Shown: positions 3,883-41,365, counted from the first letter of the stretch. The stretch: DNA of 64,000 bases from an uncultured archaeon (GCA_964508365.1 CAZDTP010000002.1:64001-128000), one strand, 5' to 3'. The notes: generated from the sequence alone by a model not told the origin. Program-made: numbers and translations.

Positions 3883-5679
3883 TTGATGGAAAATAAGAAT
3901 TGTGTGTGGATTTTCTCATTTGAATATGCCGGTGTGGTAAAAGTTGGAGGGCTTGGAGAAGTACCAGCAAATCAGGCGAAACATTTATCTGAACAGTTCA
4001 AAATTACCGTATTTATGCCCTCACATGGAAAGGTTGAAGACTTAAAAAGTAAATATACTATGGAAAAATTACCCTTCACCTGTGTTGGAACTATTAACCC
4101 TACTCTGTTTGGAATAATGGAGGAAGAAACGAGTTATAATATCTCGTTTTATAAATTTAAAAAAGAAAATGTTGAAATCATTCTATTTTCTGGCGATAAT
4201 TCATTTACATCAAAATTCTTGGATGACAACAATGTGTATAATCCTAATACCATAATGGGAAAAATTGCGTTATTTAGTCTAGGAATTCGTTGTTTAGTAG
4301 GCTATTTCATTGAAAGCAAAAGAAATGATTTACCTAAAATAGTACATTTACATGATTATCATGCGGTTTTGCCCTTTTTCGGGATGAAACAAGTTTTGGC
4401 AAGAAATGGATTGGAAGTTGCATCATTATTAACCATACATTTAATGACATGGCCTAGGTTCGAATATAATTTTTACAGAATTTGTGCAATTGATGACACA
4501 CCAATCAGAGTTTTGCTTAGTAGCGGATTTGAAATGTTAAACTTGAACCAAATTCTGCAAATATCTCAATTCGACGAAAATAAGTGGACAGAATTTGTAA
4601 TGCCTGCGGTTGAAAAAATTGGAGCTATTATTTCGGATATAGTGACTACTGTAAGCGAATCGTATTTAAATTCCGATATCATACCAAATTGTGGAAAGGG
4701 ATTAATAGAATTTAAAGCAGATTTTCTTTGGGATGGTTGCGATTGGGATTATTATGAAATTTTTAATCAAGTTATTGAGACTCATGGGAATGAGATTCGT
4801 AATTTTATACAAATTAACGACAATACTGAAATTAATGAACAGAATATGAAGAGATTTTTATTGGAGTATAAAATCGGGCATCTCAGCCATAGTCCACTAA
4901 TTAGTTCTCAAAACGTATTAAACACCATAAATGAAATCTCGAATGGAAACCCATTAATCAAAAACGGTAACATTAAAGCTTTTTTGGATTCAGGTCCATT
5001 AGTTTTAACAACTGGCCGAATTTCACCCCAAAAGGGATTTGATATCATTTTTGAAGCTGTTCCCGAAGTCTTGAAGGTTATACCTAATGTGAAATTTCTT
5101 TTTTTGCTACTACCTACGGATTATAGTATAAATGAAATTAAAACTTATTCACAATTCGTGAAGCAATATCCTCAGAACATCAGAATCATTTTTGGTGTAG
5201 CTTCAGACATTTTTTACTTAGCACATTTATCTGCAGATGTTTATTGTGCATTATCGAGATGGGAACCTTTTGGTATTATGGCGCTAGAAGCGATGGCATG
5301 TAAAATTCCTATTATCGCTACAAAAGTAGGAGGTTTGCAAGAAACTATTGTTGATGCTGTATTGAATCCAAAAACGGGTACGGGAATTTTAATTGATAGA
5401 GATAATCCTGATCAATTCGCTAAAGCTCTAATTTCCTTATGTAAATCGCTAGAAGTCGCTCATTTGGTTAACTCTTCTGAAAGTCACACAATCTTTGATA
5501 CAGATACACTTAAAATCGTTAATCAAATACCTGACGAAGTTATAAAATCACACGTTCTTCTAAATCACACGTTTTTTAATTCTATAAAAGAAAATTGTTA
5601 CAAAAGGGTGAAAGAAAATTTTACATGGAGTATAGTTTCTAAAAAATTAGCTCTTCTATACGAAAATTTAAATTCCTAA
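3883..5679 (+). CDS. glgA: Glycogen/starch synthase (GT5)
   Basis: KVGGLGEV ADP-glucose motif, HLHDYH, LLTIH, GRISPQKG and SRWEPFGIMALEAM motifs. Confidence 0.85.
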   Translation: MMENKNCVWIFSFEYAGVVKVGGLGEVPANQAKHLSEQFKITVFMPSHGKVEDLKSKYTMEKLPFTCVGTINPTLFGIMEEETSYNISFYKFKKENVEIILFSGDNSFTSKFLDDNNVYNPNTIMGKIALFSLGIRCLVGYFIESKRNDLPKIVHLHDYHAVLPFFGMKQVLARNGLEVASLLTIHLMTWPRFEYNFYRICAIDDTPIRVLLSSGFEMLNLNQILQISQFDENKWTEFVMPAVEKIGAIISDIVTTVSESYLNSDIIPNCGKGLIEFKADFLWDGCDWDYYEIFNQVIETHGNEIRNFIQINDNTEINEQNMKRFLLEYKIGHLSHSPLISSQNVLNTINEISNGNPLIKNGNIKAFLDSGPLVLTTGRISPQKGFDIIFEAVPEVLKVIPNVKFLFLLLPTDYSINEIKTYSQFVKQYPQNIRIIFGVASDIFYLAHLSADVYCALSRWEPFGIMALEAMACKIPIIATKVGGLQETIVDAVLNPKTGTGILIDRDNPDQFAKALISLCKSLEVAHLVNSSESHTIFDTDTLKIVNQIPDEVIKSHVLLNHTFFNSIKENCYKRVKENFTWSIVSKKLALLYENLNS

Positions 5680-5776
5680 GCTTTAACTGTTTTTAGAACA
5701 GAAAAGGTGTATAATTATAAATAATTAATAATTTTTTTCTCTCTCCAATTCTTAATCTTTTAATAATACGGATATA

Positions 5777-7975
5777 CTAATTAGAATTCCAAAAACTATT
5801 TAGATTCTGGAAGAGAATTTTAGGTTTATCTGGAATAAGTTCTAATTCATTTCTTATCCACTCAGCAATCCATTTGGATTTTTGTTTAAAGCGGGAATCC
5901 ATGAAAATTATAGCCCCCCTATCTTTTATTTTTCTTATAGGGCGTCCAGAAGCTTGATTTGCCCGTTGAATCGCGGGATAAAGATAAGCAAAATTCCATC
6001 CCTGTTTGTTAAAAACTTTATCGTAATATTCAATTTTTGCATTAACACGAGGAGTAGGTAAGTGATAAGGAAAACCAGCGATGATTACAGAATTCATATG
6101 ATCACCAGGATAATCCTCTCCTTCTGAATTTCTTCCACCACATACTCCTAACAAAATTGCTCCATTACGAGGTTTAGAAGCCATTGATTTAAAATCGTTT
6201 ATTAATTCAGCATTTTCAGAGGCAGAAAGACCAGGTTCCTCAATAAATAGCTTCTTGTTGTAATTCATAGCGATAGGTTCAATGCCGCTATTAGCTAATG
6301 CATTTAGAATTTTGTACGATGCACAAAATATACCGATATTTGCTGGGGTGCTACTTATAACTTCTTCAATTTTAGAGAGCATCTTTTTAAACATTAGAGG
6401 ATTTCGATTTTCTCTACGAGTATCCACACCTTCAGTTATAATAGCTTTAATATTTTGTTTTTGAAATGGAGAATCGGCGATTATACCCTTGTAACTTTTT
6501 CCACTTTGTTGTAAACTCATTAAATTATTATATACATATGGATTTACGGTTCCTGAAAGATGCAAGCTCGTATAACATTCTTTCAAAATAGGAATAGCGA
6601 TTTCTCTAGGATCTAATGCAACTATTTCTATAGAGATTGTAGATTTCCCTTTAACCTCTTTTTTATTATAACAGAAGAAATAGTTTTCCAGTAGATAACA
6701 CCTTATCCATTTTATCCAAAATTCTGCCAAGGACCCTAAATAATCTCTTGAGATTTCTCCATTAGCTAATTTCTCTTCGTGAACTGAAACACTAAAATCT
6801 AGTAAATCATTAACGAAATTTTTAAACTCATTCAAATTAACAATGCGTAAGATAGAATACACTTGAGCTAAGAATTTTTCCGCATCTATTTCTTTTTCAA
6901 AAACATTAAGATTTTTTTTCTTTTTATCTAAGTGACTTATAAGAGCCGTCACGAATGCTTGCATAATAGTTGGTGAACGATATATCTCAAGATCTTTTAA
7001 ACATAATCTAAGCGAATATGGAGTTATCCTATCGGAGTTAACTTCAGTTGCTATATCAATAACATTATGGCATTCATCGAGAACTAAAATGCAATTAGTT
7101 AATTCTTTATCTATAAATTGCATAAAATTTTGCCGGATAGATGGGTTAAATAACCATTGATAATTACATATTATCAGTTTCATATCTTTTAAGAGAAATT
7201 TGCTCAAAAAATAAGGACACAATTTTTGTTCGCTACAAAATTTTATTAAATCTTCAGCATCTACGGGGACATCGAAAATTTCAGGAGCGATATTAATTAA
7301 ATTATCATATTGATCTCTCTTTTTAATTAGGTTGAGAAAAAATTTACAGCTCCTATTTTTTCTTAAATCTGAGCACACAGCCATTGATTCTCGGGGATTA
7401 AGTTTTAAAGACAAAAGTACTTCATTAAGGCACATTTCGTTCCTTCCCCGAATAGAAAGTCCGTTAACCTTAATATTGATTTCATTATTTCTCAAATGAT
7501 TAGAAATTTTTGTAAGTTCCTTGATAATCCGAGTGTTTTGGGAGTGGGTGCGACATAAATATATTATCTTTAAATTCTTTTTAATTGCTAATGGTAACAT
7601 GGCGCTTAAAGCGATAATGGTCTTACCTGTTCCGTTCGGTGCTGCAAGTAAAGAATTTTTTTTTTCTTGAGAAGCTTTTTCGATTTGCTTTATGATACTC
7701 TCTTGCTCTTTTCTAAAATGAACATAGGGAAAAAAGGTTAGGTAACTGATTTTTTGAGGATTTGAATTACTGGTATCTTTATCTGATTTTTTTTTATTCT
7801 CCGCATTAGAGTTGTTATCATCAAAACTTGCATGATCAATTTCATGCAATAAGTCGTTGTCATTGTTTACTACTAATCTACCCTTTTTCAGAATATAAGA
7901 GAGAGAACAAGTTTTACAATAAAATCGATTATTACTAGGAAATAATACTTTTTCGCAGTTTGGGCAAAATTTCAT
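5777..7975 (-). CDS. xpd: XPD/Rad3 family Fe-S DNA helicase with an N-terminal zinc ribbon
   Basis: APNGTGKT Walker A, RTHSQ, four Fe-S Cys (EMC, AVC, RSC, LCPY), LDECHN, LSGT, SEGEDY and QASGRPIR motifs. Confidence 0.92.
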   Translation of the reverse strand: MKFCPNCEKVLFPSNNRFYCKTCSLSYILKKGRLVVNNDNDLLHEIDHASFDDNNSNAENKKKSDKDTSNSNPQKISYLTFFPYVHFRKEQESIIKQIEKASQEKKNSLLAAPNGTGKTIIALSAMLPLAIKKNLKIIYLCRTHSQNTRIIKELTKISNHLRNNEINIKVNGLSIRGRNEMCLNEVLLSLKLNPRESMAVCSDLRKNRSCKFFLNLIKKRDQYDNLINIAPEIFDVPVDAEDLIKFCSEQKLCPYFLSKFLLKDMKLIICNYQWLFNPSIRQNFMQFIDKELTNCILVLDECHNVIDIATEVNSDRITPYSLRLCLKDLEIYRSPTIMQAFVTALISHLDKKKKNLNVFEKEIDAEKFLAQVYSILRIVNLNEFKNFVNDLLDFSVSVHEEKLANGEISRDYLGSLAEFWIKWIRCYLLENYFFCYNKKEVKGKSTISIEIVALDPREIAIPILKECYTSLHLSGTVNPYVYNNLMSLQQSGKSYKGIIADSPFQKQNIKAIITEGVDTRRENRNPLMFKKMLSKIEEVISSTPANIGIFCASYKILNALANSGIEPIAMNYNKKLFIEEPGLSASENAELINDFKSMASKPRNGAILLGVCGGRNSEGEDYPGDHMNSVIIAGFPYHLPTPRVNAKIEYYDKVFNKQGWNFAYLYPAIQRANQASGRPIRKIKDRGAIIFMDSRFKQKSKWIAEWIRNELELIPDKPKILFQNLNSFWNSN

Positions 7976-8076
7976 GATAAAAATAGTTGTTTATCTTATA
8001 ATCTTAATATAAATTCAAAGTTAATATTTGTAAAGACCATATAAGTTTATTTATTAATGCTTAATTTTATAAGAAA

Positions 8077-8946
8077 ATGAGTGAAAAGAATAATAAACAA
8101 GAGTTTTTACTTTTAAGAGAATTACTCAATGAGTCTTTACTCCGTGATTTGATTATTTTTATTATATTTTATCTCTTTATTTTGGCTCAATCTTGGAAAA
8201 ACATTTTTTTATTGCTTTTTCCGGTAATTACTTACACTTTTTCTCTATTTTTTCGAGTAATTAATGCTAACAAATGGAGATTATCAATTTATGATAACAC
8301 GATCAAATACAGTCCTCTTGGATTAGAAAAAAAACATGCTAATAGATTGATTTTTACTGCGATATTACAATTAATATTACTTTTTTGGATTGGTGGGGAA
8401 TCATATTATCATCCCCAACTCATTCAGACTTATGATTTTTTTTTTAATATTATATTTAATTTCATTTACACATTTGGTTTTTATTGGATCTTAATTGATA
8501 TTTGGAGATATTCCAAAATAACCATTAAAACTAGAGATAATATCGAAGAAATCACAGAAATACTAGTAAATCACCTAAATCTTAAAAAATTTAAGCTACT
8601 TTACCTAATAAACCTAGGTACGTTTATCTTTTTAAATATTTTAAACCTGAGTATAGTAATTCTGACGGAAATTAATGGGCTTCTTGGAATTATGTATATA
8701 CTTCCAGGGACTGGAATAGAAAGTTCATTGCCATTGAAAATCTCAGTAAGTTCATTACTAATTATAGTAATTTCTCCACTGATAACCATCCTACTTTTTT
8801 ACCTTATTTATAAAAATATATCTAGCATAAACCCCACTGAATTAATAGAAAAGCTCCATTTATTACCAGATAGCAAGCAAAACAATATTATTGAAATATT
8901 AAAAAATATAAATCACAAATACTCTAGAGATTTCAGTAGTGAATAA
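8077..8946 (+). CDS. Hypothetical multi-pass membrane protein
   Basis: 289-aa ORF with about six hydrophobic segments and no recognised family motif. Confidence 0.7.
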   Translation: MSEKNNKQEFLLLRELLNESLLRDLIIFIIFYLFILAQSWKNIFLLLFPVITYTFSLFFRVINANKWRLSIYDNTIKYSPLGLEKKHANRLIFTAILQLILLFWIGGESYYHPQLIQTYDFFFNIIFNFIYTFGFYWILIDIWRYSKITIKTRDNIEEITEILVNHLNLKKFKLLYLINLGTFIFLNILNLSIVILTEINGLLGIMYILPGTGIESSLPLKISVSSLLIIVISPLITILLFYLIYKNISSINPTELIEKLHLLPDSKQNNIIEILKNINHKYSRDFSSE

Positions 8947-13269: not shown

Positions 13270-14367
13270 ATGCCTACACTTCCTTCTTTACCTCGTAATA
13301 TAACGCTCCACTTAACGGAGAATTGCAATTTAAGATGTAAGATGTGTTATTTCTGGGGAGACACTGGTGCATATTCTACTTCTCGGACTAAACAGAAACC
13401 CAAGATTTTAAATTTTGAAATTGTTAAGAACTTAATTAGAGAACTTGCGATTGTAAAACCAATTTATTCCCTTTATGGTGGAGAACCACTACTATATCCT
13501 TATTTTGAAGAATTAATAGATGAAATTAAAAAGAATAATTCCTTTGTAGATACTCCAACAAATGGAACTCTTTTATCCGACAATGCGGAAATATTGGTAA
13601 AAAAAGAATTTGACTTTGTGAGGGTTTCTCTTGACGGTCCTCGAGATATTAACGATAAACAAAGGGGTTCTGGAAGTTACGATAAAGCAATTAAAGGAAT
13701 AAATGACCTTTTCGAGGCGAAAAAGAAGAACAAAGCAAAAAAACCTTTTATTGATATAATTTACACGATAACTCCTGATAACTTTCTAACAGTCGAAGAA
13801 TTTTTCTTGCATGATCTTGATATTTCAAAAGTAGATCATATTACAATACAAATGCAGAACTATATTACAAGAAAAATGGGAAAAGATTACGCAGAATTTC
13901 TCAGTTCAGAATTCGGAATTCAAAGTGATACCTATTGGAAAAGTATGGTCCGTTTACCTTCTGAATTCTGTGAAATAGACAGAACTGAGTTATCTAGACA
14001 AGTTAACAGAGTGCGAACTTATTATTCCAGTCAAAATAAGAATGTGATGCTTCTACCGCCTACATTTTCTTCACAGAATTTAGAAGCATATCTAACTTCG
14101 AATTGGGATCAGATGATTGATGTGTATGAAAAGTGCATTATTCCTTGGGTTTCAGCAGAAATTGTCGCTAATGGTGATGTAGCACCATGTCATGTATTCT
14201 ATGATTTAGTGCTTGGAAATCTTTATGAGAACGGTATTGCCGATATTTGGAACGGAGAGAAATATAAAAGGTTCAGAAATTATATAGAATCAAAAATTTT
14301 TATGCCAATATGTCCAGGGTGCTGTATATTATACTTAAGTGGTAAAAAGTTGAGATCTAAAAAATAA
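13270..14367 (+). CDS. Radical SAM/SPASM-domain protein
   Basis: CNLRCKMC, GGEPLL, TNGTLL and VSLDG motifs; C-terminal CIIPW...NGDVAPC...CPGCC. Confidence 0.9.
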   Translation: MPTLPSLPRNITLHLTENCNLRCKMCYFWGDTGAYSTSRTKQKPKILNFEIVKNLIRELAIVKPIYSLYGGEPLLYPYFEELIDEIKKNNSFVDTPTNGTLLSDNAEILVKKEFDFVRVSLDGPRDINDKQRGSGSYDKAIKGINDLFEAKKKNKAKKPFIDIIYTITPDNFLTVEEFFLHDLDISKVDHITIQMQNYITRKMGKDYAEFLSSEFGIQSDTYWKSMVRLPSEFCEIDRTELSRQVNRVRTYYSSQNKNVMLLPPTFSSQNLEAYLTSNWDQMIDVYEKCIIPWVSAEIVANGDVAPCHVFYDLVLGNLYENGIADIWNGEKYKRFRNYIESKIFMPICPGCCILYLSGKKLRSKK

Positions 14368-14370
14368 TTA

Positions 14371-14661
14371 TCAGTATTTATCACCATTTTCATCTAAAAA
14401 ACGTGAACATGTTTCATCTAATTTCTTAATTATATGATTTCGGTCTTTCCATATAATCCACGTACTTCCCGATTTTTCGAAGTGAAATCCATCGTAATCG
14501 TCTTTTATTTTAGACAATGTTTTTTTCACAAAGCTCCAAGAAAACCCAGTTTGCTCAACAACTTCTGCAATTGCGATGGGATGATTAACTGTTAGGTTAT
14601 TGTTAAAAAAATCTATAATTTTTTCAAATCCCGTTTTGGGGAGTAAATTTTCTTTCTTCAA
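14371..14661 (-). CDS. Small winged-helix-like protein
   Basis: IAIAEVVEQTGFSWSFVKKTL (HTH-like) followed by a beta-hairpin EKSGSTWIIW. TTG start. Confidence 0.6.
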   Translation of the reverse strand: MKKENLLPKTGFEKIIDFFNNNLTVNHPIAIAEVVEQTGFSWSFVKKTLSKIKDDYDGFHFEKSGSTWIIWKDRNHIIKKLDETCSRFLDENGDKY

Positions 14662-14826
14662 GGTAAAGAGTATCCACTTCTAAAATTCAAATTATTTAGT
14701 ATATAATTTATGTAAGGTTTAAGGATATTTAATATTCGTATCTATCTACTACTATTATCTCGATGTAATTTTTATCTTATTATAAATACTGCGCGAATTG
14801 TATCTAAAATGAGCAATTAAAACGCT

Positions 14827-16017
14827 TTATTTTTTAAAATTTAGAAATTCTCCAGATTTCATCAGGTCACACGGTTTAAAATAATTTATTTGAGTGGTTT
14901 CTGCGAGTTCGATTAATATCTGGGACCATTTTTCATAATTTCTTTTACCAGCTCCAAATGGTCCGGGCATATCCATTCCTGCTAACATTGTATCATCAAT
15001 TATTTTATACCCGTTAACAATTTTTTCCTCTAATAATCTACATCCTTCGTTTAATTGAATTGCGTAATATTGTTCTGGGCTAAATAATCCTGCTTTTTCA
15101 TTTGTTTTAATATTAGGTTTTCCTTCAACCCACTCATAAATACCTTTCCCCGTTTTTCTTCCCAGATTACCTTCTTTAAGAAGGTTTGTAAGAGTTTTAC
15201 CGGGAGCAAATTCAGGCGATATTTCTTTAACAAAATAATTCATTACATCACATACAACATCCAAACCTAAAAAATCCCATTTAGCTAAGGGGCCCAATTC
15301 AGGGGGAGATACAAAATCATTGTCGATCTTCTCGTAGGGAATCCCTTTATCAGTAGCCATATCTAAAATCCAATTAAATAAGAGGCTTGTCGCAATAGTT
15401 AAGCGATTTACGATAAATCCTGGACTTTCTTTTTCTATTTTTGCAATATATCTTTTACCTTTGAGTGCCGGTAGCTTTTGACCAATTGCTACCCCTATGT
15501 CAAATGCTTCTTGTGATGTTTTCTCCCCTTTTATTAATTCAATTAACCTAAGTAAAGGAATTGGGGTAAAAAAATGCATACCAATTACTTGTTCAGGCCT
15601 GTTTGATGTTTCGGCTATTTTAGAGATACTCATCGTTGAGGTATTTGTTGCTAGTACAGTATGTTCTAGTGCATATTCCCCTAGTTCTTTAAATAAATCT
15701 TGCTTCAATTCCATTACTTCAGGTATTGCTTCTACAACAAAATCAGCTTCTTTGATTGAAGTTATTAGGTTTTTCGTAGTAATGAGTTTTTTAATTAAAA
15801 AATCGGTTGTTAAACCTTGACCCAATTTTCCTTTTGATTCGATTTTCTCAAGACCTGTTGTAATGTATTTTTTCGCAGTGATTAAAGCATTTTCATTAAT
15901 ATCGTTCAAAATAACCTTTTCAAATAAGTTTGACATTAGAGCAACTTGTGCTATTTCCCTTCCCATTGTCCCCGCCCCAACTACAACAAATGTTTTAAAA
16001 CGACTTAAATCTACCAT
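14827..16017 (-). CDS. 3-hydroxyacyl-CoA dehydrogenase with an extra C-terminal helical domain
   Basis: VVGAGTMG, EAIPE, ATNTSTM, GMHFF, PGFIVNR and GRKTGKGIYEW motifs. ATG at 16017 follows an SD-like GAGGT; the track uses TTG 16035. Confidence 0.9.
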   Translation of the reverse strand: MVDLSRFKTFVVVGAGTMGREIAQVALMSNLFEKVILNDINENALITAKKYITTGLEKIESKGKLGQGLTTDFLIKKLITTKNLITSIKEADFVVEAIPEVMELKQDLFKELGEYALEHTVLATNTSTMSISKIAETSNRPEQVIGMHFFTPIPLLRLIELIKGEKTSQEAFDIGVAIGQKLPALKGKRYIAKIEKESPGFIVNRLTIATSLLFNWILDMATDKGIPYEKIDNDFVSPPELGPLAKWDFLGLDVVCDVMNYFVKEISPEFAPGKTLTNLLKEGNLGRKTGKGIYEWVEGKPNIKTNEKAGLFSPEQYYAIQLNEGCRLLEEKIVNGYKIIDDTMLAGMDMPGPFGAGKRNYEKWSQILIELAETTQINYFKPCDLMKSGEFLNFKK

Positions 16018-31967: not shown

Positions 31968-32924
31968 ATAAAAGTACTGTTATTTGGTCCCGGTGGTGCA
32001 GGTAAAACATCGCTAATGCGTACTACTTGTTTAGGATATAACTTCATGAAAGTGCTCAATCTAAAACCTACAAAAGGAGTTTCGAGGGAAAATTTTATCT
32101 TTCGTGGAATTATGGAATTATCCATCTGGGATCTAGGAGGACAACAACTTTACATGGACAGATACTTCTCTGAAAAACAACGAGAGCTTGTCTTTTCTGA
32201 AGTAATGACGGCAGTTTTCATGGTGGATTCAACGGCAAATGAACCTCGTTTAAAAGAAATTTTTGATAATTTTTTGAAGTACCTCTTTGAATTTAGTCCT
32301 CAAGTCGAGAAAGTATATGTTTTGCTAAATAAAATTGATCTTCAGGAATCGAAGGAAGACGAATTATATGAACTACTTATCGATAAGCTCACCGACGATT
32401 TGAAAAATAGAGTTGCTTTTACCCCTGTATCGGTGAAAGAGGGGAGTGCTCAACATAGATTAATTGAAATTTTAGATTACAAAATCCAACAAAATACTTT
32501 AGCGCTACAAAGACTAGGAAAAATAAGACACATGCTAGATCAGTTAAAGATTATTACACTCTCGGAATACTTTTTGTTTAATCAACCGGATGGGCTATTA
32601 ATAGCATCAACTTTGGGAAAAATAGATTTAAATCATAAACTTCAATTTATGAAGCTAGAAATAGGAACGCTTGAATCGAATATATATCAAATCTTCACAA
32701 GGATTATGAATCTTTCAGATTCCCCGTTGTCACCTCTGGAATTATCCACTGTCATATATGAAAGCGAATATAACTATATTTTAATGAAGGAACTTAGCAA
32801 TGGATCGGTACTGATGGTTGTTACAAAAGATAAAACTATTGGAACTTTTAATACGGTGATAACCGAATTAAATGGAGAAGATTTCCAAAATTTGAAAAAA
32901 TTCCTTAATAGGGACGACTTTTAA
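31968..32924 (+). CDS. Gtr1/RagA-like small GTPase with C-terminal roadblock domain
   Basis: P-loop KVLLFGPGGAGKTSLM lies upstream of the tracked ATG 32016. LSIWDLGGQQLYMDRYF...ELVF resembles Gtr1 LNLWDCGGQ..FMENYF...HIF. NKID (G4) and a roadblock-like C-terminus (LFNQPDGLLIAS...ILMKEL...LMVVT) follow. Confidence 0.85.
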   Translation: MKVLLFGPGGAGKTSLMRTTCLGYNFMKVLNLKPTKGVSRENFIFRGIMELSIWDLGGQQLYMDRYFSEKQRELVFSEVMTAVFMVDSTANEPRLKEIFDNFLKYLFEFSPQVEKVYVLLNKIDLQESKEDELYELLIDKLTDDLKNRVAFTPVSVKEGSAQHRLIEILDYKIQQNTLALQRLGKIRHMLDQLKIITLSEYFLFNQPDGLLIASTLGKIDLNHKLQFMKLEIGTLESNIYQIFTRIMNLSDSPLSPLELSTVIYESEYNYILMKELSNGSVLMVVTKDKTIGTFNTVITELNGEDFQNLKKFLNRDDF

Positions 32925-33945
32925 TTAATTCTAAATCAATTTTATTAGAAAATATTGTTATATTAGAATGTTCTTCAATAATAGAAAACAAATAATTGTT
33001 TGTATTTTTAATTACAGGTGTTATAAACAATAATTCTTCTTCGGGAATGCATTTTTCAACTTTTTCGTTTAATACCTCTTTTTCAAAAAATTCTTTAATA
33101 TAAGTAATTCGGACGATGAGATCGTCGAATTCTTTTTTACTGTTATTCTTTACTAAAACTTCTATTTCCTGAAAATTGTTAATACTATATATACTAGTTA
33201 TTTTAAATTGATCTTTAATTCCTAATTTTTGCTGAACAACTCTATCATAATCAAATAATCGAATTTTAGAAAACGATTTATTTTGATTGTTTATGACAAT
33301 GTGGTCAATATCGATTCCTTTAAATGTTAAATAAGAAATTGCTTTTTGCAATTTGAAAGTGGTCGTATCAGTTTGTTTAATTACAGATGAAAAATATTCC
33401 TCACAAGTAAGGTTAATTATAGCTTTTATTTCTTCTTTTATTTGATCTCCTTTTTTTATCTTATTGATTAATTTCTCTGTTTTGATAATTTCTAGTTTCG
33501 CAATTTCTGACTCGATTACATAATAAAGCGTATTTTCAAATTTGGTGATTAATTTTTCCGTTAATAAGTTTAATACATCTCCCCCAAAAACATCTAAATC
33601 TGTTGGTAACATAAGTATCAATACAATCGTTTCACCCAATTTTGGAAAAGACCCTGATCTTCTTTTAACTCTCTTAGAATCAATAATAATTTTCTTCGCA
33701 AAATACATTTGATTACAATATTCTAAATCGATTCGGTTAATTGTAGTTTCATCTTTAAGTTCTAAAAACCAAATTGGATGGTATCTTATAAGATGTAATT
33801 TTCCCGAATCATCATCTAGCGCATTTTCTGGACAAATAAGAAGTGGGATATGACCTAAAGTCTCATCAAAATAAAACAAAAGAGTCTCACACAATTCACT
33901 AAATGGACACTCTGTATTGGCGTTATTTAAGAGATTTTCTTTCAA
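32905..33945 (-). CDS. Longin/uDENN-like domain protein (NPRL2-like N-terminus) with a C-terminal beta-sandwich
   Basis: LLFYFDETLGHIPLLICPE resembles the first hairpin of uDENN/NPRL2 longins (FFSEFHPTLGPKITYQVPE). The C-terminus has alternating beta-strand patterns. Confidence 0.6.
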   Translation of the reverse strand: MKENLLNNANTECPFSELCETLLFYFDETLGHIPLLICPENALDDDSGKLHLIRYHPIWFLELKDETTINRIDLEYCNQMYFAKKIIIDSKRVKRRSGSFPKLGETIVLILMLPTDLDVFGGDVLNLLTEKLITKFENTLYYVIESEIAKLEIIKTEKLINKIKKGDQIKEEIKAIINLTCEEYFSSVIKQTDTTTFKLQKAISYLTFKGIDIDHIVINNQNKSFSKIRLFDYDRVVQQKLGIKDQFKITSIYSINNFQEIEVLVKNNSKKEFDDLIVRITYIKEFFEKEVLNEKVEKCIPEEELLFITPVIKNTNNYLFSIIEEHSNITIFSNKIDLELIKSRPY

Positions 33946-34003: not shown

Positions 34004-35308
34004 TTAATGAGAAGCGCACGATATGCAAGGATCAAATGCTCTTATCATTCTTTGAGTTTTTTCTTTAACAGAATCGATATCTTCTTTTTCATATAGCTTT
34101 TTAGCATATTCTGTGATCATTTTGTTAAGAATAGGCAAATTTATTTCGGTTGCAATGAAAAGTTTTACTTGATCAACGATTTTAGCTTTATTTAAATGAT
34201 AATGATGCATTAATACACCTCTTGGTGCTTCGAGAACCCCTATTCCATTTGATTTTTTTATTGAGTTTAGGTGTTCAAGTTTTGTTTTACTTTTTAGTGA
34301 AGTAGTATTTACCATTTCAACACTTTTCTGAATTTCGTAATAACTTTCAATTAATTGTAAAAAGTTTAAAAATAATAAATTGCTTTTCCATTTTTTTCCA
34401 AAATTGCTTATATATTCGGATATTTTATCAATCCCATAATTTTGAGTTATCTTATAGCGTGCTATTGGTCCTGTTAAAATGTTATTTTTCGAATTTGACT
34501 TAAACGTAATCCCATAAAGATTAGGGTTTTTATCAAAATATTTTGAATAATTTTTCGCTTGAAAATCGTCGTAAGTTGCTTCATTTTGTTCAATTCTGAG
34601 ATCTCCTTCATATCTATCAAACCCCATATTATTCTTTAAACCGAAAAATATAGGATTAGAAAGATTAAATTCTGTAGGAGGATCAAAAGCAGAAAATAAA
34701 TCTATAAAATTTTCAATTATGGTGTCTATATAGTAAATCCCCTTTTTTAGATATTTCTCTATAGAAATTAAACTCTTTCGATTAGGATTGAATATTAATC
34801 CTCCAGGAATAGGAGTAATTGGATGTAGCATCCTTCCTCCTATTAACTTATTTATTTCTGAACCAATTTTTATTAAATTAAAAACATTTGTCGTTAATTG
34901 AGGATTGTAATTAATCAAATTATAAGGATCGTTAATTGTATGATTAATATTAAATATTTTTAATAAATCTGGAAAGGACTGGAAAAAATAATGCATCATG
35001 TGCGATTTTATTAATTCTCCGGATAATAAAAGCCTTCTAAGCAAAATTGATTTATATGATGGTTCTATTCCGTATATATCTTCTATTGCTTTGCAACTTG
35101 CAATTGTTTGAGATGCGTAGCACAATCCACAAATTCTAGATACTATTTTTGGAATTTCTAATAATTTTTTCCCTACTAAAATATTTTCAAATCCTCTAAA
35201 TACTGAAAAATTTAATTCAGTTTGATAAATTTCATCATTTTTTAAATAAATGATTAAGTTTCCACTACCTTCAACTCTTGTGCATGCTGCCACAACTTTA
35301 TCTATCAA
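34004..35308 (-). CDS. [NiFe]-hydrogenase large subunit, group-3-like, without C-terminal extension
   Basis: TRVEG, L1 RICGLC, EAPRG and L2 DPCISCASH followed directly by a stop. The TTG start overlaps the upstream stop. Confidence 0.9.
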   Translation of the reverse strand: MIDKVVAACTRVEGSGNLIIYLKNDEIYQTELNFSVFRGFENILVGKKLLEIPKIVSRICGLCYASQTIASCKAIEDIYGIEPSYKSILLRRLLLSGELIKSHMMHYFFQSFPDLLKIFNINHTINDPYNLINYNPQLTTNVFNLIKIGSEINKLIGGRMLHPITPIPGGLIFNPNRKSLISIEKYLKKGIYYIDTIIENFIDLFSAFDPPTEFNLSNPIFFGLKNNMGFDRYEGDLRIEQNEATYDDFQAKNYSKYFDKNPNLYGITFKSNSKNNILTGPIARYKITQNYGIDKISEYISNFGKKWKSNLLFLNFLQLIESYYEIQKSVEMVNTTSLKSKTKLEHLNSIKKSNGIGVLEAPRGVLMHHYHLNKAKIVDQVKLFIATEINLPILNKMITEYAKKLYEKEDIDSVKEKTQRMIRAFDPCISCASH

Positions 35309-36069
35309 ACCTTCCCTCCTACAGTCGATTTTGAGAACCTATAATATATCGCTTTATATTTTCTTAAGTCTTTAGAAAGGTGAAAAAGGCTTAAAATGTT
35401 GATTAAATTCGCTGTAAAACCCTTTGAAGCCGTGCCAAGACATCCTTCACAGGGTAATCCTTGATTTATACAGAGATGATCACAACCATCTCGAGTAACA
35501 GGACCTAAACATAAAATCCCGTCGTTTAAAAAACACGATAAATTTTCTTCCGGAAAATGAATTTCATCGTTTCTTGGAACAATCTTTTCTATTGTTAATG
35601 GAAAATCAAATTTTGCGTGGTTGTTTAAAGGACAAGTAGAACACATATTTTTTAAGCTTAGCTTGATTTTTTTGTTCTCAACTAAATTCAATATACAATT
35701 TCCTAAAAGTATGGACGGAGGAGGACATCCAGGAATAATACCATCAATTTCTACGTACTTTGAAATAGGATACGATTCTTTTTTATTTGAGAGACTAAGA
35801 ATCCCCCCAAATGCAGAGCATGTACCTAATGCATATAATTTTTTTGCATTTTTTCGTATTTCTTGAAGATATTCGATTTGATTCTTTTCGGATACGCACC
35901 CCTCTACTAGCGCTATATCGCATTCTTTGATCTCTAAATTGTCAGATATAAATGGAAAATATTCGATTTTCGTTCTCTCAAGAAATTGTGGAAATACATC
36001 TAACGATATTAATGCTGATATACATCCAGTACAAGACGTTAAAGAAGTAATTAAAAATTTAAGCCTTAC
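35305..36069 (-). CDS. [NiFe]-hydrogenase small subunit (MvhG/HydD-like)
   Basis: Manual translation extends the tracked ORF 35305-35691 in frame: (M)RLKFLITSLTSCTGC...ALVEGC...ALGTCSAFGG...IPGCPP...CSTC...CLGPVTRDGC...CEGC. There is no ATG/GTG/TTG upstream; the proposed start is GTA at 36069. Confidence 0.87.
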   Translation of the reverse strand, partial: VRLKFLITSLTSCTGCISALISLDVFPQFLERTKIEYFPFISDNLEIKECDIALVEGCVSEKNQIEYLQEIRKNAKKLYALGTCSAFGGILSLSNKKESYPISKYVEIDGIIPGCPPPSILLGNCILNLVENKKIKLSLKNMCSTCPLNNHAKFDFPLTIEKIVPRNDEIHFPEENLSCFLNDGILCLGPVTRDGCDHLCINQGLPCEGCLGTASKGFTANLINILSLFHLSKDLRKYKAIYYRFSKSTVGGKV

Positions 36070-38605
36070 TTTTAATCTCCTCCTTTAATAAATAATAGAA
36101 TTTATTAGAGATTTCAGCAAATTTCTGTCCTTCTACTCCATTTAAGCTTATCACTATTATCCGTCTGCTTAACTTTGGTCCTAGAATCTTTTTTAAAAGC
36201 CCGACTCTTTTTCTTAATTTTTCAATCCCATCGATATATCTACAAGAATCCTTTCTACAACCGATAATCATAACTCCATCAAATCCCATTTCAAAAGATT
36301 TAAAAATGAATTCAGTATCAATACGTCCAGTACAAGGAACAGAGATTATAAAAACATTAGGCGGATATAACAATTTTTTTAATCCCGCATCGTCAGCGGC
36401 AGCGTAACCGCACGATTGGCAACAAAAAGCGATGATTTTTGGTTTTTTATTGAATTTTGAGAAAATTTCAATCGTTTTTAAAATCTTTTCTGATGTATTT
36501 ATATTCATTTCGATGGCATTAGTAGGACAAACACTCGCACACATACCACAAGCTTTACATTTAAACTTATCAATAGTAATTTTTTCGGAGATTATGCTTA
36601 TTGCATTGTAAGGGCAGGAATTGACGCAGAGGTTACACAATCCACATTTATCTTCATTAATCTCTATTCCAGTATATTCTGCTATTAAATAATCATTTGA
36701 AAGAAGGGATATTACTTTTAATGCTATGTTATTGGTGGATGCAATAGTTGAGTGATAATTTAATGGCCCAAATATTGTGCCAACACCATAAATACCAGAA
36801 GCTAAAGTTTCTTCACTCATAAAACCATAATCATTTAAAGTGAAGTCCATAATCTTTCTTAGAGATTTCAGATCCTTATTTGGAATTAATTTTATATTTA
36901 AAACAATCAAATCACTCTGAAACTCAATAGAATCCGCAATTACATAATTAATATTTTCTCTTGTCTCAATTAATACTTTATTAGCGTAAAGAAATCTAGG
37001 ATGAGTAGATTTTAGTATTATCTCGTCTTTTTCTTTTAATTTACTTAAATCGTAAAAAACATTAACTTCACAATCAGGGTTCTTCACTTTAATAATATCT
37101 ATATACTTTAGGGTTAAAATATCCGAATATTCACATAGATAGTTTGAAGGTCCTACTTCTTGAATAATTGATATTGTTTTCGCTATTTTCCCATCAGACA
37201 ATTTTACAATCTTTCCATCAGTTAAGCCATCTGAACATAAAATTCGTTCAAATTCTGCCGAAGTTATAACATTATTTCGTGGGTTGTAATTATATTTTTT
37301 TAAATTTGAATAAAGATCTGAACCAATAGCTATAACTTTTGCACCTACTTTAATTCTTAATTCCTTAGGCTTTTCCATTAAATTTATTGCATTATTTGCA
37401 CAAGCGCGTTCACATACTCTACATTCAAGGCAGTTATTAATATCATTATCTTCAATAACGGGGACATAAGGATAACAGTATTGAAAAGGAAAGTGAATTA
37501 TTTTTCTATTTGTTAATCCAAATTCATACATATTAACTTTCTCTCGAGCACACACATCAATACATTGGTTACAACCTGTACATTTAGTCTCATCAATATA
37601 GCGAGGTTTTTTAATTAATCCTATAGTAAAATTGCCAACTTCTCCAGATACACTTATTATTTCTGTATTTGTCAATATTTCGATTTTTTTATCTTTTACA
37701 ATTTCCCCAATTAATTCAGAGATGAAACAAGCAGAACAATCTCCCATATTAGAAATTTTTTGCCATCTTGCTACTTTTCCTCCTAATGTAGGTGACTTTT
37801 CAATTAGATAACCGTTGATACCTGCCTTTGATAAGTTTAAAGCTAGGTTCATACCCGCAATCCCACCTCCAACAATAGCGCAGCTTTTTTCAACTTCAAC
37901 TCTTTTTACTTTAATTGGTTTTTGAAGATTTACTCGATTAACTGAGGCTTCTATAAGTAATTGCGCTTTTTTCAGAGTTAAACGACTATCAATATGCTTT
38001 TTACTGGAATAATGTACCCAACAGCATTGTTCTCTTATATTTGCAATCTCAATATTTGTATTATCAATTATATTTTGAAAAAGATGTTCAAATATATGTT
38101 GATGTGTTTTAGGAGAACAAGCAGCGATAATAATTTTATTTATGAAGTTATCAGTAATCCAATTATTAATATTATCTTGATTTTTTTCTTGGCATAAATT
38201 ATCAAGGATTTTAACTGAGACTACATTGTTTATTTTACTTACATAATTTTCTAAGGAGTTAATGTTAAGCACATTTGTAATTTCTGTATTACAATTACAT
38301 ATAATAACACCTATTCTGTTTATTTCGCTCCCTTTTGATTTTAAATATTCTATTTCCTCTCCAGATAAAATTCTTTTGTTTAATCCTAATACCCTTAAAA
38401 CTCTTTTACCGTCATCAGTTAAATAATACGATTTTTTGTCTTTACTTACTAAAATATTAAGCTTTTTCAAATGAAAATTTAATTGTCCTGTTTGTTTTAT
38501 ACCTAACTTCACCATTAATTCGGTATATGGGATAAATCCCTCTTCTTCGAGAAGGTATAAGAGTTTTCTTCTCATTGGATGGGCTAAAATTGAATATATA
38601 TCCAT
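36059..38605 (-). CDS. Fusion of ArsR-like winged HTH, HdrA-like FAD/Fe-S protein and MvhD
   Basis: aa 1-75 ILAHPMRRKLL...GQLNFHLKKL...YYLTDDG (wHTH). IGVIICNC, AACSP, ANIREQCCWVH, VGGGIAG, EKSPTLGG and ferredoxin CxxCxxCxxxC motifs (HdrA). C-terminal IIAFCC...YAAAD...VPCTGRID...GFDGV...GC...CRY (MvhD). Confidence 0.9.
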   Translation of the reverse strand: MDIYSILAHPMRRKLLYLLEEEGFIPYTELMVKLGIKQTGQLNFHLKKLNILVSKDKKSYYLTDDGKRVLRVLGLNKRILSGEEIEYLKSKGSEINRIGVIICNCNTEITNVLNINSLENYVSKINNVVSVKILDNLCQEKNQDNINNWITDNFINKIIIAACSPKTHQHIFEHLFQNIIDNTNIEIANIREQCCWVHYSSKKHIDSRLTLKKAQLLIEASVNRVNLQKPIKVKRVEVEKSCAIVGGGIAGMNLALNLSKAGINGYLIEKSPTLGGKVARWQKISNMGDCSACFISELIGEIVKDKKIEILTNTEIISVSGEVGNFTIGLIKKPRYIDETKCTGCNQCIDVCAREKVNMYEFGLTNRKIIHFPFQYCYPYVPVIEDNDINNCLECRVCERACANNAINLMEKPKELRIKVGAKVIAIGSDLYSNLKKYNYNPRNNVITSAEFERILCSDGLTDGKIVKLSDGKIAKTISIIQEVGPSNYLCEYSDILTLKYIDIIKVKNPDCEVNVFYDLSKLKEKDEIILKSTHPRFLYANKVLIETRENINYVIADSIEFQSDLIVLNIKLIPNKDLKSLRKIMDFTLNDYGFMSEETLASGIYGVGTIFGPLNYHSTIASTNNIALKVISLLSNDYLIAEYTGIEINEDKCGLCNLCVNSCPYNAISIISEKITIDKFKCKACGMCASVCPTNAIEMNINTSEKILKTIEIFSKFNKKPKIIAFCCQSCGYAAADDAGLKKLLYPPNVFIISVPCTGRIDTEFIFKSFEMGFDGVMIIGCRKDSCRYIDGIEKLRKRVGLLKKILGPKLSRRIIVISLNGVEGQKFAEISNKFYYLLKEEIKSKA
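36077..36084 (-). promoter_or_regulatory. Shine-Dalgarno AGGAGGAG for the hydrogenase small subunit
   Basis: Lies 7 nt upstream of GTA 36069, inside the 3' end of the upstream gene. Confidence 0.55.
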
Positions 38606-38725
38606 TTTTGAGCTTTCCTATTGAGTTTTTATTCTAAATTTATTTTGTTAAAAACTTTTTTTTGACAAATTATTTTTTCTTCATGATAATATATGTTGTA
38701 AAAGTATATAAGTATGTTAGAAAAT

Positions 38726-38737
38726 GATCATATGATC
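38726..38737. promoter_or_regulatory. Perfect 12-bp palindrome GATCATATGATC, candidate operator
   Basis: Self-complementary sequence in the 322-bp divergent spacer upstream of the HTH-HdrA operon. Confidence 0.45.
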
Positions 38738-38801
38738 CCTGAATTCCATCAATAAAAATGACGATTTTCAATTAACTAAAAAAATTGTTATGAAAAAAAT
38801 T

Positions 38802-38821
38802 TTGATAAATTTCCTTATCAA
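38802..38821. promoter_or_regulatory. Inverted repeat TTGATAA-N6-TTATCAA, candidate operator
   Basis: Perfect 7-bp arms in the same divergent spacer. Confidence 0.45.
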
Positions 38822-38927
38822 GAAGTTAAAAAATATTCTTGTCAAATTCTTTATATTTCAAGCTTATTACAATTCAATTAGGTAAATACTTATTTAAAAA
38901 GTTGAAATAAAAGAGGTGGATTAATAT

Positions 38928-39545
38928 ATGGAAGTTTTGGATTTGAAGTCAGTAAAAAATAAAAAAATAATAGCATATATGTCCTCAAAAGAAAATGGCA
39001 GGTATTTTCAAAATAAAAATACATTAGGATTAACCGAATTTCTTAAAAAGAAAGATGTTAATTTTGTTACCGTAGATTTTCAAGTAAATATGAAGGAATT
39101 TAAGAAAACACCTTTTGCACAAACATTAGATAACCTTGGAATACCATATATTCAAGTAGATATACCAGATTATGCAATGGGATATCTTTACGAAGAAGTT
39201 GTTGAAAAACAAAAACTTCAAAATGAATTATTTGAAGAATATGAAAATATGAGTGATAAAGAATCTTTCAAAGGACAAAGTTTAAAAAACTGGATTGACA
39301 TGTTAAGCGAAGAAATTCAAGAAAAAGAGATTTTTTTAAGTTTAAAGCTAAGACCACAGTGGATCGTAAAAAAAATGTTAGATTTTGCATATCATTTTGA
39401 AAATGAAGTTGTTTCTTTTGTACATTTTGTTCAAGAGGATATTTGCGAGGATATTTGCCCTCAAGTCGTGGCAAATTTAAGAGATTTGGGTGTAAAGGTA
39501 ATTTCCTATACTAAAAAACATACAATTCAAAATATTATATTTTAA
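38928..39545 (+). CDS. Hypothetical protein, paralog of the downstream gene
   Basis: Shares EVL(D/E)LK, GI.(Y/F)...DI.....YL and (K)(L/V)R..W patterns with 39569-40300. SD GAGGTG is present. Confidence 0.75.
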   Translation: MEVLDLKSVKNKKIIAYMSSKENGRYFQNKNTLGLTEFLKKKDVNFVTVDFQVNMKEFKKTPFAQTLDNLGIPYIQVDIPDYAMGYLYEEVVEKQKLQNELFEEYENMSDKESFKGQSLKNWIDMLSEEIQEKEIFLSLKLRPQWIVKKMLDFAYHFENEVVSFVHFVQEDICEDICPQVVANLRDLGVKVISYTKKHTIQNIIF

Positions 39546-39568: not shown

Positions 39569-40300
39569 ATGCCAGAAGTATTAGAATTAAAGCCATTAAA
39601 AGATAAGTATCTAAAGCTTATCATGGTAGAAAGTGAGTTTCCAATAGATTGGTGGTTCGAAGTTCCTAAAGAAAAAAAGGAAGATTTGCTATGGTCTTTA
39701 CATCTTATTAGCAAAGAATATCTTCAGCTCGTCGATAATTTAATCGACAAGTATTCACCAGATTTTGCTTTGGAAGAAAAACCCAATTTTTGGAATGACC
39801 CGTTAAATCCTAACGATCCTCTAAAAACCTTATTCCAAAAGAAAGGAATTCGATTTAAACATGCTGATATCTCTGAAAATGCGGAATTTTATCTTTCCGC
39901 CGCATTAGATGAGCATAGAAATATGCTGCAAATACTTGAAGAGCGAATCAGAGAGATAATTACAGAAAAAGGTGTTGTTCCCTCCGAGGATGAACTTTTC
40001 CAACAATTAGTTTTATGGAAGGAATATCTCAAAAATGATTATAACTCACAAGAAGATGAAATTCGATATAAAGTTAGAGAGGCTTGGATGATGATGAATA
40101 TTTTAAACATTGCCAAGGAGATTGAAGGGAAAAAATCAAAGGGGTTATTTATTTGCGATTTAAGGCACTTTGAAGGCCTTGATAAGTTAGCAAACGATTT
40201 AGGCATCGATACAGAACAGATCAAAATCAAAAGAACTATTAAAACCGCAGAAATCGAAAAAGAGTATGAAGAAGAGGTAGTTGTTGAAATATCTAAATAG
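39569..40300 (+). CDS. Hypothetical protein, possibly TraB/TIKI/EreA-like fold
   Basis: SPDFALEE, VREAWMMMNI and LFICDLRHFEGL loosely recall TraB/ChaN motifs. SD AGGAGTGA is present. Confidence 0.6.
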   Translation: MPEVLELKPLKDKYLKLIMVESEFPIDWWFEVPKEKKEDLLWSLHLISKEYLQLVDNLIDKYSPDFALEEKPNFWNDPLNPNDPLKTLFQKKGIRFKHADISENAEFYLSAALDEHRNMLQILEERIREIITEKGVVPSEDELFQQLVLWKEYLKNDYNSQEDEIRYKVREAWMMMNILNIAKEIEGKKSKGLFICDLRHFEGLDKLANDLGIDTEQIKIKRTIKTAEIEKEYEEEVVVEISK

Positions 40301-40351: not shown

Positions 40352-41365
40352 ATGAGAAAAATTACTCAAAATAATGAAATTGGAAATAAAATTGAAAGTA
40401 TTCTTGGTATTAAATCAATAATAGAATTGACGCCAATTAAAATAAAGAAAAAGGATACTTCAGATAAGATTTGTTATTTTTTTGATACGGATGATAACGC
40501 TTCTCCATTTGACATTAACATGGCTTACGACGCTGGTTTTGATATTGTTGTGCCAATAAGTAGAATGACGGCGGATCAAGTTCCTAAACTTGTCCAGGAT
40601 GCTATATTTTCACGTAAACCTAAAGCACCTACAACCTTTTTTATTGGGGGATCTAATGTAGAAGAAGGGGAAAAAATCTCTAAGAAAGTTATTGAATCCT
40701 TAGTACCTCCATTTGAATGTCCTGTAATAATAGATCCAAGGGGTTCTCATACTACTGCTTCTGCAGTTGTAGCTAAGACTTTATACGATGCTAGAAATAT
40801 ATATAAAATTAGTGATTTAAAAGGAGAAAAAGTCGTAATCTATGGGGCAGGCCCAGTTGCCAGAATTGCTGCCATATTAGCCGCAAAAGAAGGTTTGAAT
40901 ACATTTTTAGTTGAAACTTGGGATAAATCGAACGATGTGTTTATAAAAAATCTTGCTAAAGAACTAACCGAAGAAGCTGGTGAGAATGCAACCGAGGTTA
41001 AAGGGATTTTTGCGCCTGAGAAAGAACAAAGATATAATGTTGCTAAAGATGCGTTAATTATTTGGTCTCTAGCTGCTGCTGGTGTTGAAATTTTATCAAG
41101 CGATCTAATGGAAAGGTTAGAAGGTAAGAAAATTGTAGTAGATATCAATTTAGTTCCCCCTTATGGAATTGAAGGAATAAGACCAAAACACGATAATGAA
41201 GAAATATATCCAGGAATTTTTGGAATCGGAGCATTAGCATTAGGTCGTTTAAAAGCAAATTCGGAGGGAGAAATATTAAAGGAAGCAACAAAAACTAAAG
41301 GTACAAAGGTATTTGATTATAACTATGCGTTCGAAGTTGCTAAAAAATTGTTATCTAGAATGTAA
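40352..41365 (+). CDS. mtdB: NAD(P)-dependent methylene-H4MPT dehydrogenase (MtdA/MtdB family)
   Basis: SPFDINMAYDAG, QDAIFSR, FIGG, DPRGSHTTASA, GAGPVARIAA and DINLVPPYGIEGI motifs. Confidence 0.85.
   Translation: MRKITQNNEIGNKIESILGIKSIIELTPIKIKKKDTSDKICYFFDTDDNASPFDINMAYDAGFDIVVPISRMTADQVPKLVQDAIFSRKPKAPTTFFIGGSNVEEGEKISKKVIESLVPPFECPVIIDPRGSHTTASAVVAKTLYDARNIYKISDLKGEKVVIYGAGPVARIAAILAAKEGLNTFLVETWDKSNDVFIKNLAKELTEEAGENATEVKGIFAPEKEQRYNVAKDALIIWSLAAAGVEILSSDLMERLEGKKIVVDINLVPPYGIEGIRPKHDNEEIYPGIFGIGALALGRLKANSEGEILKEATKTKGTKVFDYNYAFEVAKKLLSRM

Follow-up and report, generated by a model that had tools for sequence, protein, structure and literature searches.

Our analysis of a 64,000-nucleotide (nt) stretch of DNA from an uncultured Asgard archaeon (GCA_964508365.1 CAZDTP010000002.1:64001-128000; hereafter the window, with positions counted from its first letter) identified an operon in which the genes for the small and large subunits of a [NiFe] hydrogenase follow a gene that joins an ArsR-type winged helix-turn-helix (wHTH) domain to an HdrA-like flavo-iron-sulfur body and a C-terminal MvhD domain. 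The conservation of this architecture, together with a palindrome on the operon's promoter, suggested that the enzyme probably controls its own genes, possibly responding to H2 or redox state. We regard the complex, with a likelihood only slightly above even, as a trigger enzyme, that is, a hydrogenase complex whose flavoprotein regulates its own genes via the palindrome. The features of the operon, with amino acid (aa) positions of the fusion protein, were as follows.

36059-38605, minus strand: wHTH-HdrA-MvhD fusion gene, 848 aa (open reading frame [ORF]; Pfam, NCBIfam and PDB matches)
38366-38605, minus strand: ArsR-type winged HTH, aa 1-80, with the predicted recognition helix at aa 39-49 (TGQLNFHLKKL) and the wing at aa 53-62 (PF24038, PDB profile search, AlphaFold2 [AF2], Foldseek)
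38318-38386, minus strand: linker between the wHTH and the HdrA N-terminal domain, aa 74-96 (ortholog conservation, low-confidence model)
36461-38317, minus strand: HdrA body, comprising the N-terminal Fe-S domain, the flavin adenine dinucleotide (FAD) domain (GGGIAG), and the inserted and C-terminal 2x[4Fe-4S] ferredoxin domains (alignment to solved HdrA)
37115-37168, minus strand: degenerate [4Fe-4S] site of the thioredoxin-reductase domain, aa 480-497 (alignment to solved HdrA, orthologs)
36062-36445, minus strand: MvhD ([2Fe-2S]) domain, aa 721-848 (PF02662, invariant cysteines)
35305-36069 (frame 35305-36084), minus strand: [NiFe]-hydrogenase small subunit, VhuG-like (PF01058; start placed by homology)
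34004-35308, minus strand: group-3-type [NiFe]-hydrogenase large subunit, 434 aa, ending at the L2 histidine (PF00374)

Architecture and distribution of the fusion protein

The fusion gene is an uninterrupted 848-aa frame that opens with ATG. Pfam assigned a DUF7347 (PF24038) winged HTH to aa 2-72 (38-43 bits against a cut-off of 27.6), FlpD/MvhD (PF02662) to aa 724-839 (E 1e-33) and, between them, several 4Fe-4S ferredoxin domains and a dinucleotide-binding fold (aa 243-283). The stretch aa 97-841 matched HdrA2 (NF040770) of NCBIfam from end to end (E 1e-166) with 556 bits, about half of the cut-off of 1100, and PDB matches comprised HdrA chains (8RVU/5ODC) over aa 92-713 (E 1e-104) and MvhD chains over aa 721-841 (E 1e-23). 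These matches bear out the layout proposed in an earlier sequence-only reading of the window, namely a single 848-aa ORF consisting of an ArsR-like wHTH, an HdrA-like body and MvhD. The HdrA-MvhD fusion per se is already known (HdrA2 type; PMC11237513). The same reading had held the architecture with an HTH to be undescribed, and the literature searched did not describe an HTH attached to HdrA. NiFe-FrhG-HdrA clusters do appear in papers on Asgard hydrogenases, but with no mention of a DNA-binding domain.

The full architecture recurs, at 63-92% identity, in more than 120 database proteins of about 848 aa. A scan of species-representative genomes recovered 19 full-length loci, all from Promethearchaeota, and the next-best matches (at most 34% identity) began at residue 88-97 and had no HTH. 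Counting ORFs of about 845-900 aa that covered query residues 1-135, we found the fusion in approximately 118 of 399 Asgard genomes belonging to many families, with N-terminal identity down to 34%. The loci compared in this study, 39 in total, were 19 near ones and the 20 most distant ones fetched, and the order fusion-small-large was kept in all of them where the sequence allows, even at 35% (fusion) and 25% (large subunit) identity among the 20 most distant. The search for co-occurrence of HTH, HdrA and MvhD and for synteny with hydrogenase genes, as earlier proposed, thus returned a constant three-gene order. Within its genome the fusion is unique, and about 15 HdrA paralogs match it only from residue 88-97 on. 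Two bacterial loci outside Asgard, where tblastn matches started at residue 44-46, were considered as HTH fusions and rejected, as their ORFs begin later and encode no HTH.

The possibility that the fusion is an artefact, either a chimeric assembly or a gene-calling error joining a small regulator gene to hdrA, appeared negligible. Some database entries of 816-819 aa begin at the internal Met31, which reflects variable start calls only and lends no support to an artefact; residues 1-30, upstream of Met31, are conserved, and one unbroken frame recurs in genomes from many samples and assemblers. Chimerism, named in the sequence-only reading as a possible refutation, is ruled out because the same architecture is found in the database proteins, the Asgard genomes and the 39 fetched loci. 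Judged from these comparisons, the architecture is genuine, has a long history in Asgard archaea and is strongly selected.

Two further observations concern relatives of the fusion. HdrA/MvhD paralogs on contigs C92, C72, C46, C53, C82 and C99 contain in-frame TGA codons inside good matches, which may be selenocysteine sites. One lineage (locus L100) has an insertion (2509-8494) between X/Y (the neighbouring genes described below) and the fusion, made up of an HdrCB-like gene, a double-HdrA fusion (1047 aa), MvhD and an FrhB-like gene. Behind its hydrogenase come genes for a histidine kinase and a response-regulator-AsnC protein (13685-15659); neither the insertion nor the kinase/regulator pair is conserved in the other loci.

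The winged HTH domain

Modeling indicated that the N-terminal domain has a true ArsR-type fold. When aa 1-96 were modelled with AF2 (predicted local distance difference test [pLDDT], 89), helices were placed at residues 10-22, 27-34, 39-52 and 64-80 and strands at 53-56 and 59-62. The top Foldseek neighbours of the model were all wHTH regulators (TM 0.6-0.7; E ~1e-3), including YodB, CadC, NolR-DNA, Rv0081, CggR-DNA and QsrR-DNA. The PDB profile search returned the ArsR-like A. fulgidus protein 1Y0U (E 1e-5) and PagR 2ZKZ (E 0.006), and the match to HTH_20 was weak (E 0.004). The domain is basic (typical isoelectric point, ~9.6). Mean column identity across 58 orthologs was 0.83 for the wHTH and 0.83 for the linker, compared with 0.76-0.82 for the catalytic parts. 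Residues Y4, H9, R12, L16, G40, H45, K55, Y60, L62, G66 and G82 were invariant across near and far clades, and T39, L42, N43, L46, K47 and K48 nearly so, with the recognition helix reading TG.LN[FY]HLKKL throughout. A degenerate or missing HTH in homologs, another refutation envisaged earlier, is contradicted by this near-invariance across the phylum. With its basic character, conserved recognition helix and DNA-binding neighbours, the domain looks like a DNA reader. The full-length model showed the wHTH as a separate confident domain, with a pLDDT below 50 for the joining stretch (aa 74-94); the linker is conserved in sequence among close orthologs (G82 being invariant) yet modelled as disordered.

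An operator-like palindrome on the promoter

The following putative regulatory sites were located in the region upstream of the fusion gene.

38704-38712, upstream of O1: TATA-like box
38685-38700, minus strand: palindrome O1, TACAA-CATATA-TTATC, directly downstream of the TATA-like box (conserved motif)
38664-38679, minus strand: site O2, GAAAA-AATAAT-TTGTC, 21 bp downstream of O1
38804-38819: palindrome O3, GATAA-GGAAAT-TTATC, about 110 nt upstream of gene X

Upstream of the orthologous operons, a shared motif follows immediately on a TATA-like box. Its core is a 16-bp palindrome, GAYAA-N6-TTRTC, which, where present, lies between the TATA box and the likely transcription start. A site directly after the TATA box is the usual position for an archaeal repressor. 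A 40-nt weight matrix derived solely from loci in which the fusion has 66-73% identity to the window's protein ranked positions 38657-38696 first among the 8.1 million positions of the 4.07-Mb genome (29.9 bits against 20.3 for the runner-up). With leave-one-out matrices, 15-16 of 18 loci (9-14 kb each) had their best match upstream of the fusion and on its strand. Of 38 loci, 24 (representing 8 of 12 clades) had the relaxed palindrome within 350 nt upstream of the fusion; its background frequency in the non-ORF DNA of this genome is 0.0025 per 350 nt. In distant higher-GC lineages the palindrome reads GACAACATTTATTGTC.

The relaxed palindrome occurs 38 times in the genome, with five copies outside long ORFs, O3 being one of them. 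A wider regulon was considered and rejected, since the genes near the remaining four non-ORF copies are unrelated (Cys-tRNA synthetase, AsnC-type regulator, ATC-hydrolase-like) and these copies look like chance occurrences. Each of five higher-GC genomes contains 4-9 copies of the strict palindrome, 1-2 of which flank this operon; of the further strict palindromes, four in G376 (one also in G371) lie inside ORFs and a fifth, in G377, is perhaps intergenic. From the distribution of these sites, the putative regulon seems limited to the fusion's own operon and the co-inherited operon of genes X, Y and an MtdB-like dehydrogenase. A palindrome nearly confined to the locus should have a dedicated factor as its binder, and across clades no HTH-encoding gene except the fusion stays with the locus; autoregulation is therefore the most economical reading, with the fusion's own wHTH as the predicted binder.

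Rfam yielded no match at E up to 1 in the leader (38500-39000), and a sigma-70 promoter scan was uninformative for an archaeon. A perfect 12-bp palindrome, GATCATATGATC, lies at 38726-38737, just upstream of the TATA-like box, and the promoters of some relatives (L025, L032) contain ATCAT-type repeats spaced by about 10 nt.

Proposed route from redox state to transcription

In the proposed scheme, a cytosolic group-3 [NiFe] hydrogenase would be composed of the large subunit, the small subunit and the HdrA-MvhD flavo-iron-sulfur subunit, the last of which would double as the transcription factor of its own operon. As HdrA is an obligate dimer in solved complexes (PMC9012536), two N-terminal wHTH domains would be available to bind the 16-bp palindrome; dimerisation of the wHTH is suggested by these HdrA dimers and by the invariant C290. 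The simplest outcome of a wHTH pair sitting on O1, O2 and O3 would be repression of transcription. In methanogen complexes, the HdrA N-terminal domain is part of a mobile arm that moves during turnover (PMC13580544), and it is on this domain that the wHTH is hung; because of this attachment, DNA binding may respond to the redox state of the FAD and Fe-S centres, as set by H2 via the hydrogenase or by ferredoxin. The fullest version of this scheme, in which the hydrogenase complex is itself the transcription factor and H2 or reduced ferredoxin moves the HdrA arm, shifting the winged helices on the palindrome and thereby switching the hydrogenase operon and the MtdB-like module without a kinase, is offered tentatively, and we would sooner doubt than expect it to hold in every part.

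Hydrogenase subunits and gene overlaps

The large subunit carries RICGLC, EAPRG and DPCISCASH, all intact, and the L1/L2 [NiFe] ligand motifs (RxCGxC, DPCxxCxxH) are kept in nearly all orthologous loci. Its best PDB matches were NiFe-HydABCSL 7t2r_D (E 1e-51) and MvhA 5odc_F (E 3e-43), which are of group 3 and not of group 2b, and no kinase is conserved at the locus. By sequence comparison, the large subunit is closest to catalytic group-3 enzymes. The NCBIfam scores settled no subgroup, with VhuA at 161 bits against a cut-off of 800 and ShyA (3b) higher, at 181 bits; Asgard-specific hydrogenase subgroups 3e-3l have been proposed (bioRxiv 10.1101/2024.07.04.601786). Most orthologous large subunits stop at the L2 histidine or a few residues past it, without the C-terminal extension of about 25 residues found in MvhA. 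Identity among loci ranges from 25 to 55% for the large subunit and from 35 to 72% for the fusion, so that the large subunit evolves faster. The window's large subunit reads RVEGS where most orthologs have R[VI]EGH and close relatives have C or H at the last position.

The sequence-only reading had described the fusion, small-subunit and large-subunit genes as translationally overlapped. The overlaps are real: the large-subunit start TTG overlaps the small-subunit stop TGA (TTGA), and 16 of 18 related loci have a GTG, TTG or ATG as the small-subunit start codon 8 nt ahead of the HdrA stop. A canonical small-subunit start is absent from the window, however, as the corresponding position (36067-36069, minus strand) reads GTA and no ATG, GTG or TTG opens the frame where expected, making the start of this overlapping gene non-canonical here. 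The codon is GTG in the three closest relatives, TTG or ATG in others and ATC in one (L029); the GTA may represent a genuine but weak start, a lesion or an erroneous base.

The statement that the operon lacks hdrB and hdrC was confirmed, with no CCG (HdrB) domain in the 64-kb window and 44 CCG matches elsewhere in the genome. The second, and only other, [NiFe] hydrogenase cluster of the genome (C8:44356-48681) encodes a 438-aa small subunit, a 434-aa large subunit, an HdrC-like ferredoxin and an HdrB-like CCG protein without HdrA, and is in this respect the mirror image of the window's operon. Downstream of the large subunit, at a distance of 58 nt, a 346-aa protein with no Pfam family is encoded (32905-33945, minus strand); it occupies the same position in Lokiarchaeial relatives only, at 40-88% identity.

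The cofactor chain

The FAD motif, the cysteines of the N-terminal cluster, the DCSxC pair, both ferredoxin domains and MvhD (C729, C732, C758, C783 and C788) were invariant in 58 plus 20 orthologs. The cluster of the thioredoxin-reductase domain differs from this pattern. Its canonical motif, CxGSRD..CSxxCC, reads IIQEVGPSN..YLCEYSDI in the window's protein, with three of the four cysteines replaced, and none of the 58 Lokiarchaeial orthologs has a complete four-cysteine set, whereas deep-branching members of the fusion family retain the motif. The HTH fusion must therefore be older than the loss of the cluster, and the pattern among orthologs indicates that this loss is a derived trait of the Lokiarchaeial clade, not one of the whole family. 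In HdrA, this [4Fe-4S] cluster is the electron exit to HdrBC (PMC9012536) and has been named HA4 (PMC13580544). Its loss in the window's clade implies that the enzyme here is not a heterodisulfide reductase; it more likely links H2 with ferredoxin and with the co-inherited dehydrogenase module acting on a one-carbon (C1) carrier.

Extra cysteines absent from canonical HdrA are present at aa 194/195, 242 and 512 (about 38021-38026, 37880-37882 and 37070-37072) and are conserved at 83-98% within the Lokiarchaeial clade. Outside this clade, C242 is absent, C195 occurs in some lineages only and C194 in nearly all; C512 is lost in the nine most distant loci. These residues could form a replacement metal site or a thiol switch.

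The co-inherited X-Y-MtdB-like operon

Three genes lie on the opposite strand beyond the promoter region.

38928-39545, plus strand: gene X, 205 aa, Asgard-only, no Pfam family, paralog of Y
39569-40300, plus strand: gene Y, 243 aa, Asgard-only, no Pfam family, co-inherited with the fusion
40352-41365, plus strand: MtdB-like dehydrogenase with the N-terminal domain of methylene-tetrahydromethanopterin dehydrogenase (PF09176, E 4e-25)

The MtdB-like protein has a weakly matched nucleotide-binding region beside its PF09176 domain, and a language-model search with X and Y gave a weak TraB/GumN lead only. X, Y and the MtdB-like gene are divergent neighbours of the hydrogenase operon in 11 of the 19 near loci. 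In nine distant loci, a single protein of 564-567 aa, in which a Y-like domain is fused to MtdB-like domains, is encoded directly after the large subunit, and the palindrome is found in the preceding gap in seven of them. Within the genus, Y is present in all 30 genomes with the fusion and absent from 11 of 12 without it, counts that overstate the link because the genomes are related and not independent. The exception among the latter carries only a fused Y-Mtd paralog, located in another gene context, and no palindrome was found in the 3.7-kb stretch covered. As the two operons have been gained, lost and rearranged together, they behave as one module. A structure prediction of Y with the HdrA body (aa 97-720) scored 0.00 and gave no verdict, providing no evidence either way.

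Alternative interpretations

Two other accounts of the conserved fusion were weighed against the self-regulating enzyme. The wHTH might be purely structural or serve protein docking, for example with partner subunits, while a separate transcription factor binds the palindrome. Winged helices often serve protein contacts, the conserved linker that is modelled as disordered could pack on a partner, and the genome encodes other DUF7347 proteins, the DNA binding of this wHTH being predicted only. The conserved positions, however, are those with which ArsR proteins read DNA (the recognition helix, the wing lysine and the helix-1 arginine), and the structural neighbours of the domain all bind DNA. 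A nearly locus-confined palindrome also calls for a dedicated binder, and no HTH gene other than the fusion travels with the locus across clades. We thus consider a purely enzymatic role for the fusion unlikely, though it retains some weight. The other account is the H2/redox sensor favoured in the sequence-only reading. Taken as a dedicated sensor, the complex would carry no metabolic flux and would only signal the presence of H2 to the wHTH; the wHTH would in turn control its own operon and the X-Y-MtdB-like one, giving a kinase-free counterpart of HupUV/HoxBC. Sensory hydrogenases are not known to have the C-terminal extension of the large subunit, which most orthologs here lack as well; moreover, the large subunit evolves faster than the fusion, the HdrBC-leading cluster is lost in the Lokiarchaeial clade, the second hydrogenase cluster is available for catalysis and the candidate regulon includes a second operon. 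On the other side, FAD, six [4Fe-4S] sites, the [2Fe-2S] site and the surface-facing ferredoxin domains are invariant throughout the phylum, which is much for a sensor to keep, and deep-branching members possess the full cluster set. The best matches of the large subunit are catalytic group-3 enzymes, not group 2b, and the module is gained and lost with an enzyme-encoding operon, like a metabolic unit. This joint inheritance and the complete cofactor chain reaching the surface favour a self-regulating enzyme over a pure sensor, which we consider distinctly improbable. What stands of the earlier proposal is an HTH-bearing regulator, with an HTH of the DNA-reading type and a palindrome on its own promoter; its dedicated-sensor part fits less well, given cofactor sites that are invariant except for one cluster.

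Several findings weigh against the self-regulating enzyme as well. The relaxed palindrome is missing upstream of the fusion in 14 of 38 loci (4 of 12 clades), O1 itself carries one mismatch (TACAA), and the transcription start was placed from the TATA position only. The matches of the wHTH to solved ArsR proteins are modest (profile E 1e-5; Foldseek E ~1e-3), and the genome codes for at least four further DUF7347 proteins. The GTA at the small-subunit start may mean that the operon is impaired in this organism, or that the assembly contains an error.

Comparison with known systems and implications

The complex shares with MvhAGD-HdrABC (5ODC, 8RVU, 9SW2), the electron-bifurcating hydrogenase/heterodisulfide reductase of methanogens, and with HdrA2-type fusions the group-3 large/small pair, the MvhD [2Fe-2S] centre, the HdrA FAD, the N-terminal cluster, the DCSxC pair and the inserted and C-terminal ferredoxin domains. 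It differs from these systems in the added N-terminal ArsR-type wHTH with its conserved linker, the absence of hdrBC from the operon, the loss of the HdrBC-feeding cluster (in the window's clade) and the lack of the large-subunit C-terminal extension, and all its NCBIfam scores fall far under the cut-offs of the respective families. PutA of enterobacteria is a trigger enzyme in which the FAD redox state switches the protein off DNA. A further precedent is RbkR, an archaeal riboflavin kinase/regulator that combines an enzyme with a wHTH (PMC5397151). Both RbkR and PutA follow the pattern of an enzyme with an N-terminal DNA-binding domain and operators at its own and pathway genes, a pattern to which our fusion would conform through its predicted binding; its enzymatic portion is a multi-cluster flavoprotein connected to a hydrogenase, and the DNA-binding domain is an ArsR-type wHTH in place of the ribbon-helix-helix of PutA.

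HupUV/HoxBC (group 2b, with the kinase HupT/HoxJ) likewise have a large subunit without the C-terminal extension and a link to gene control, which is predicted in our case. In contrast to them, the hydrogenase described here belongs to group 3, its output domain would reside on the electron-transfer subunit itself, and no kinase or response regulator is conserved, the kinase near the operon of one relative not travelling with it. The fusion has in common with ArsR/SmtB repressors (1Y0U, 2ZKZ, CadC, NolR) the fold, the recognition-helix pattern ..HLK.L and a palindrome on the promoter; unlike them, it is not a stand-alone protein of about 100 aa, its HdrA body would supply dimerisation, and no metal-sensing cysteines are evident in the wHTH.

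H2 exchange is central to ideas on the Asgard lifestyle and to syntrophy models of eukaryote origin, and we know of no account of how Asgard archaea sense H2 or redox state. The proposed operators and the 96-residue N-terminal domain are both defined, so the idea is directly testable in vitro. The comparison of loci also ties the uncharacterised, Asgard-only X and Y and the MtdB-like dehydrogenase to this hydrogenase. If our interpretation is correct, a DNA-reading electron-transfer subunit would represent a new coupling of H2 or redox state to transcription, and a multi-cofactor redox complex would join the short list of trigger enzymes.

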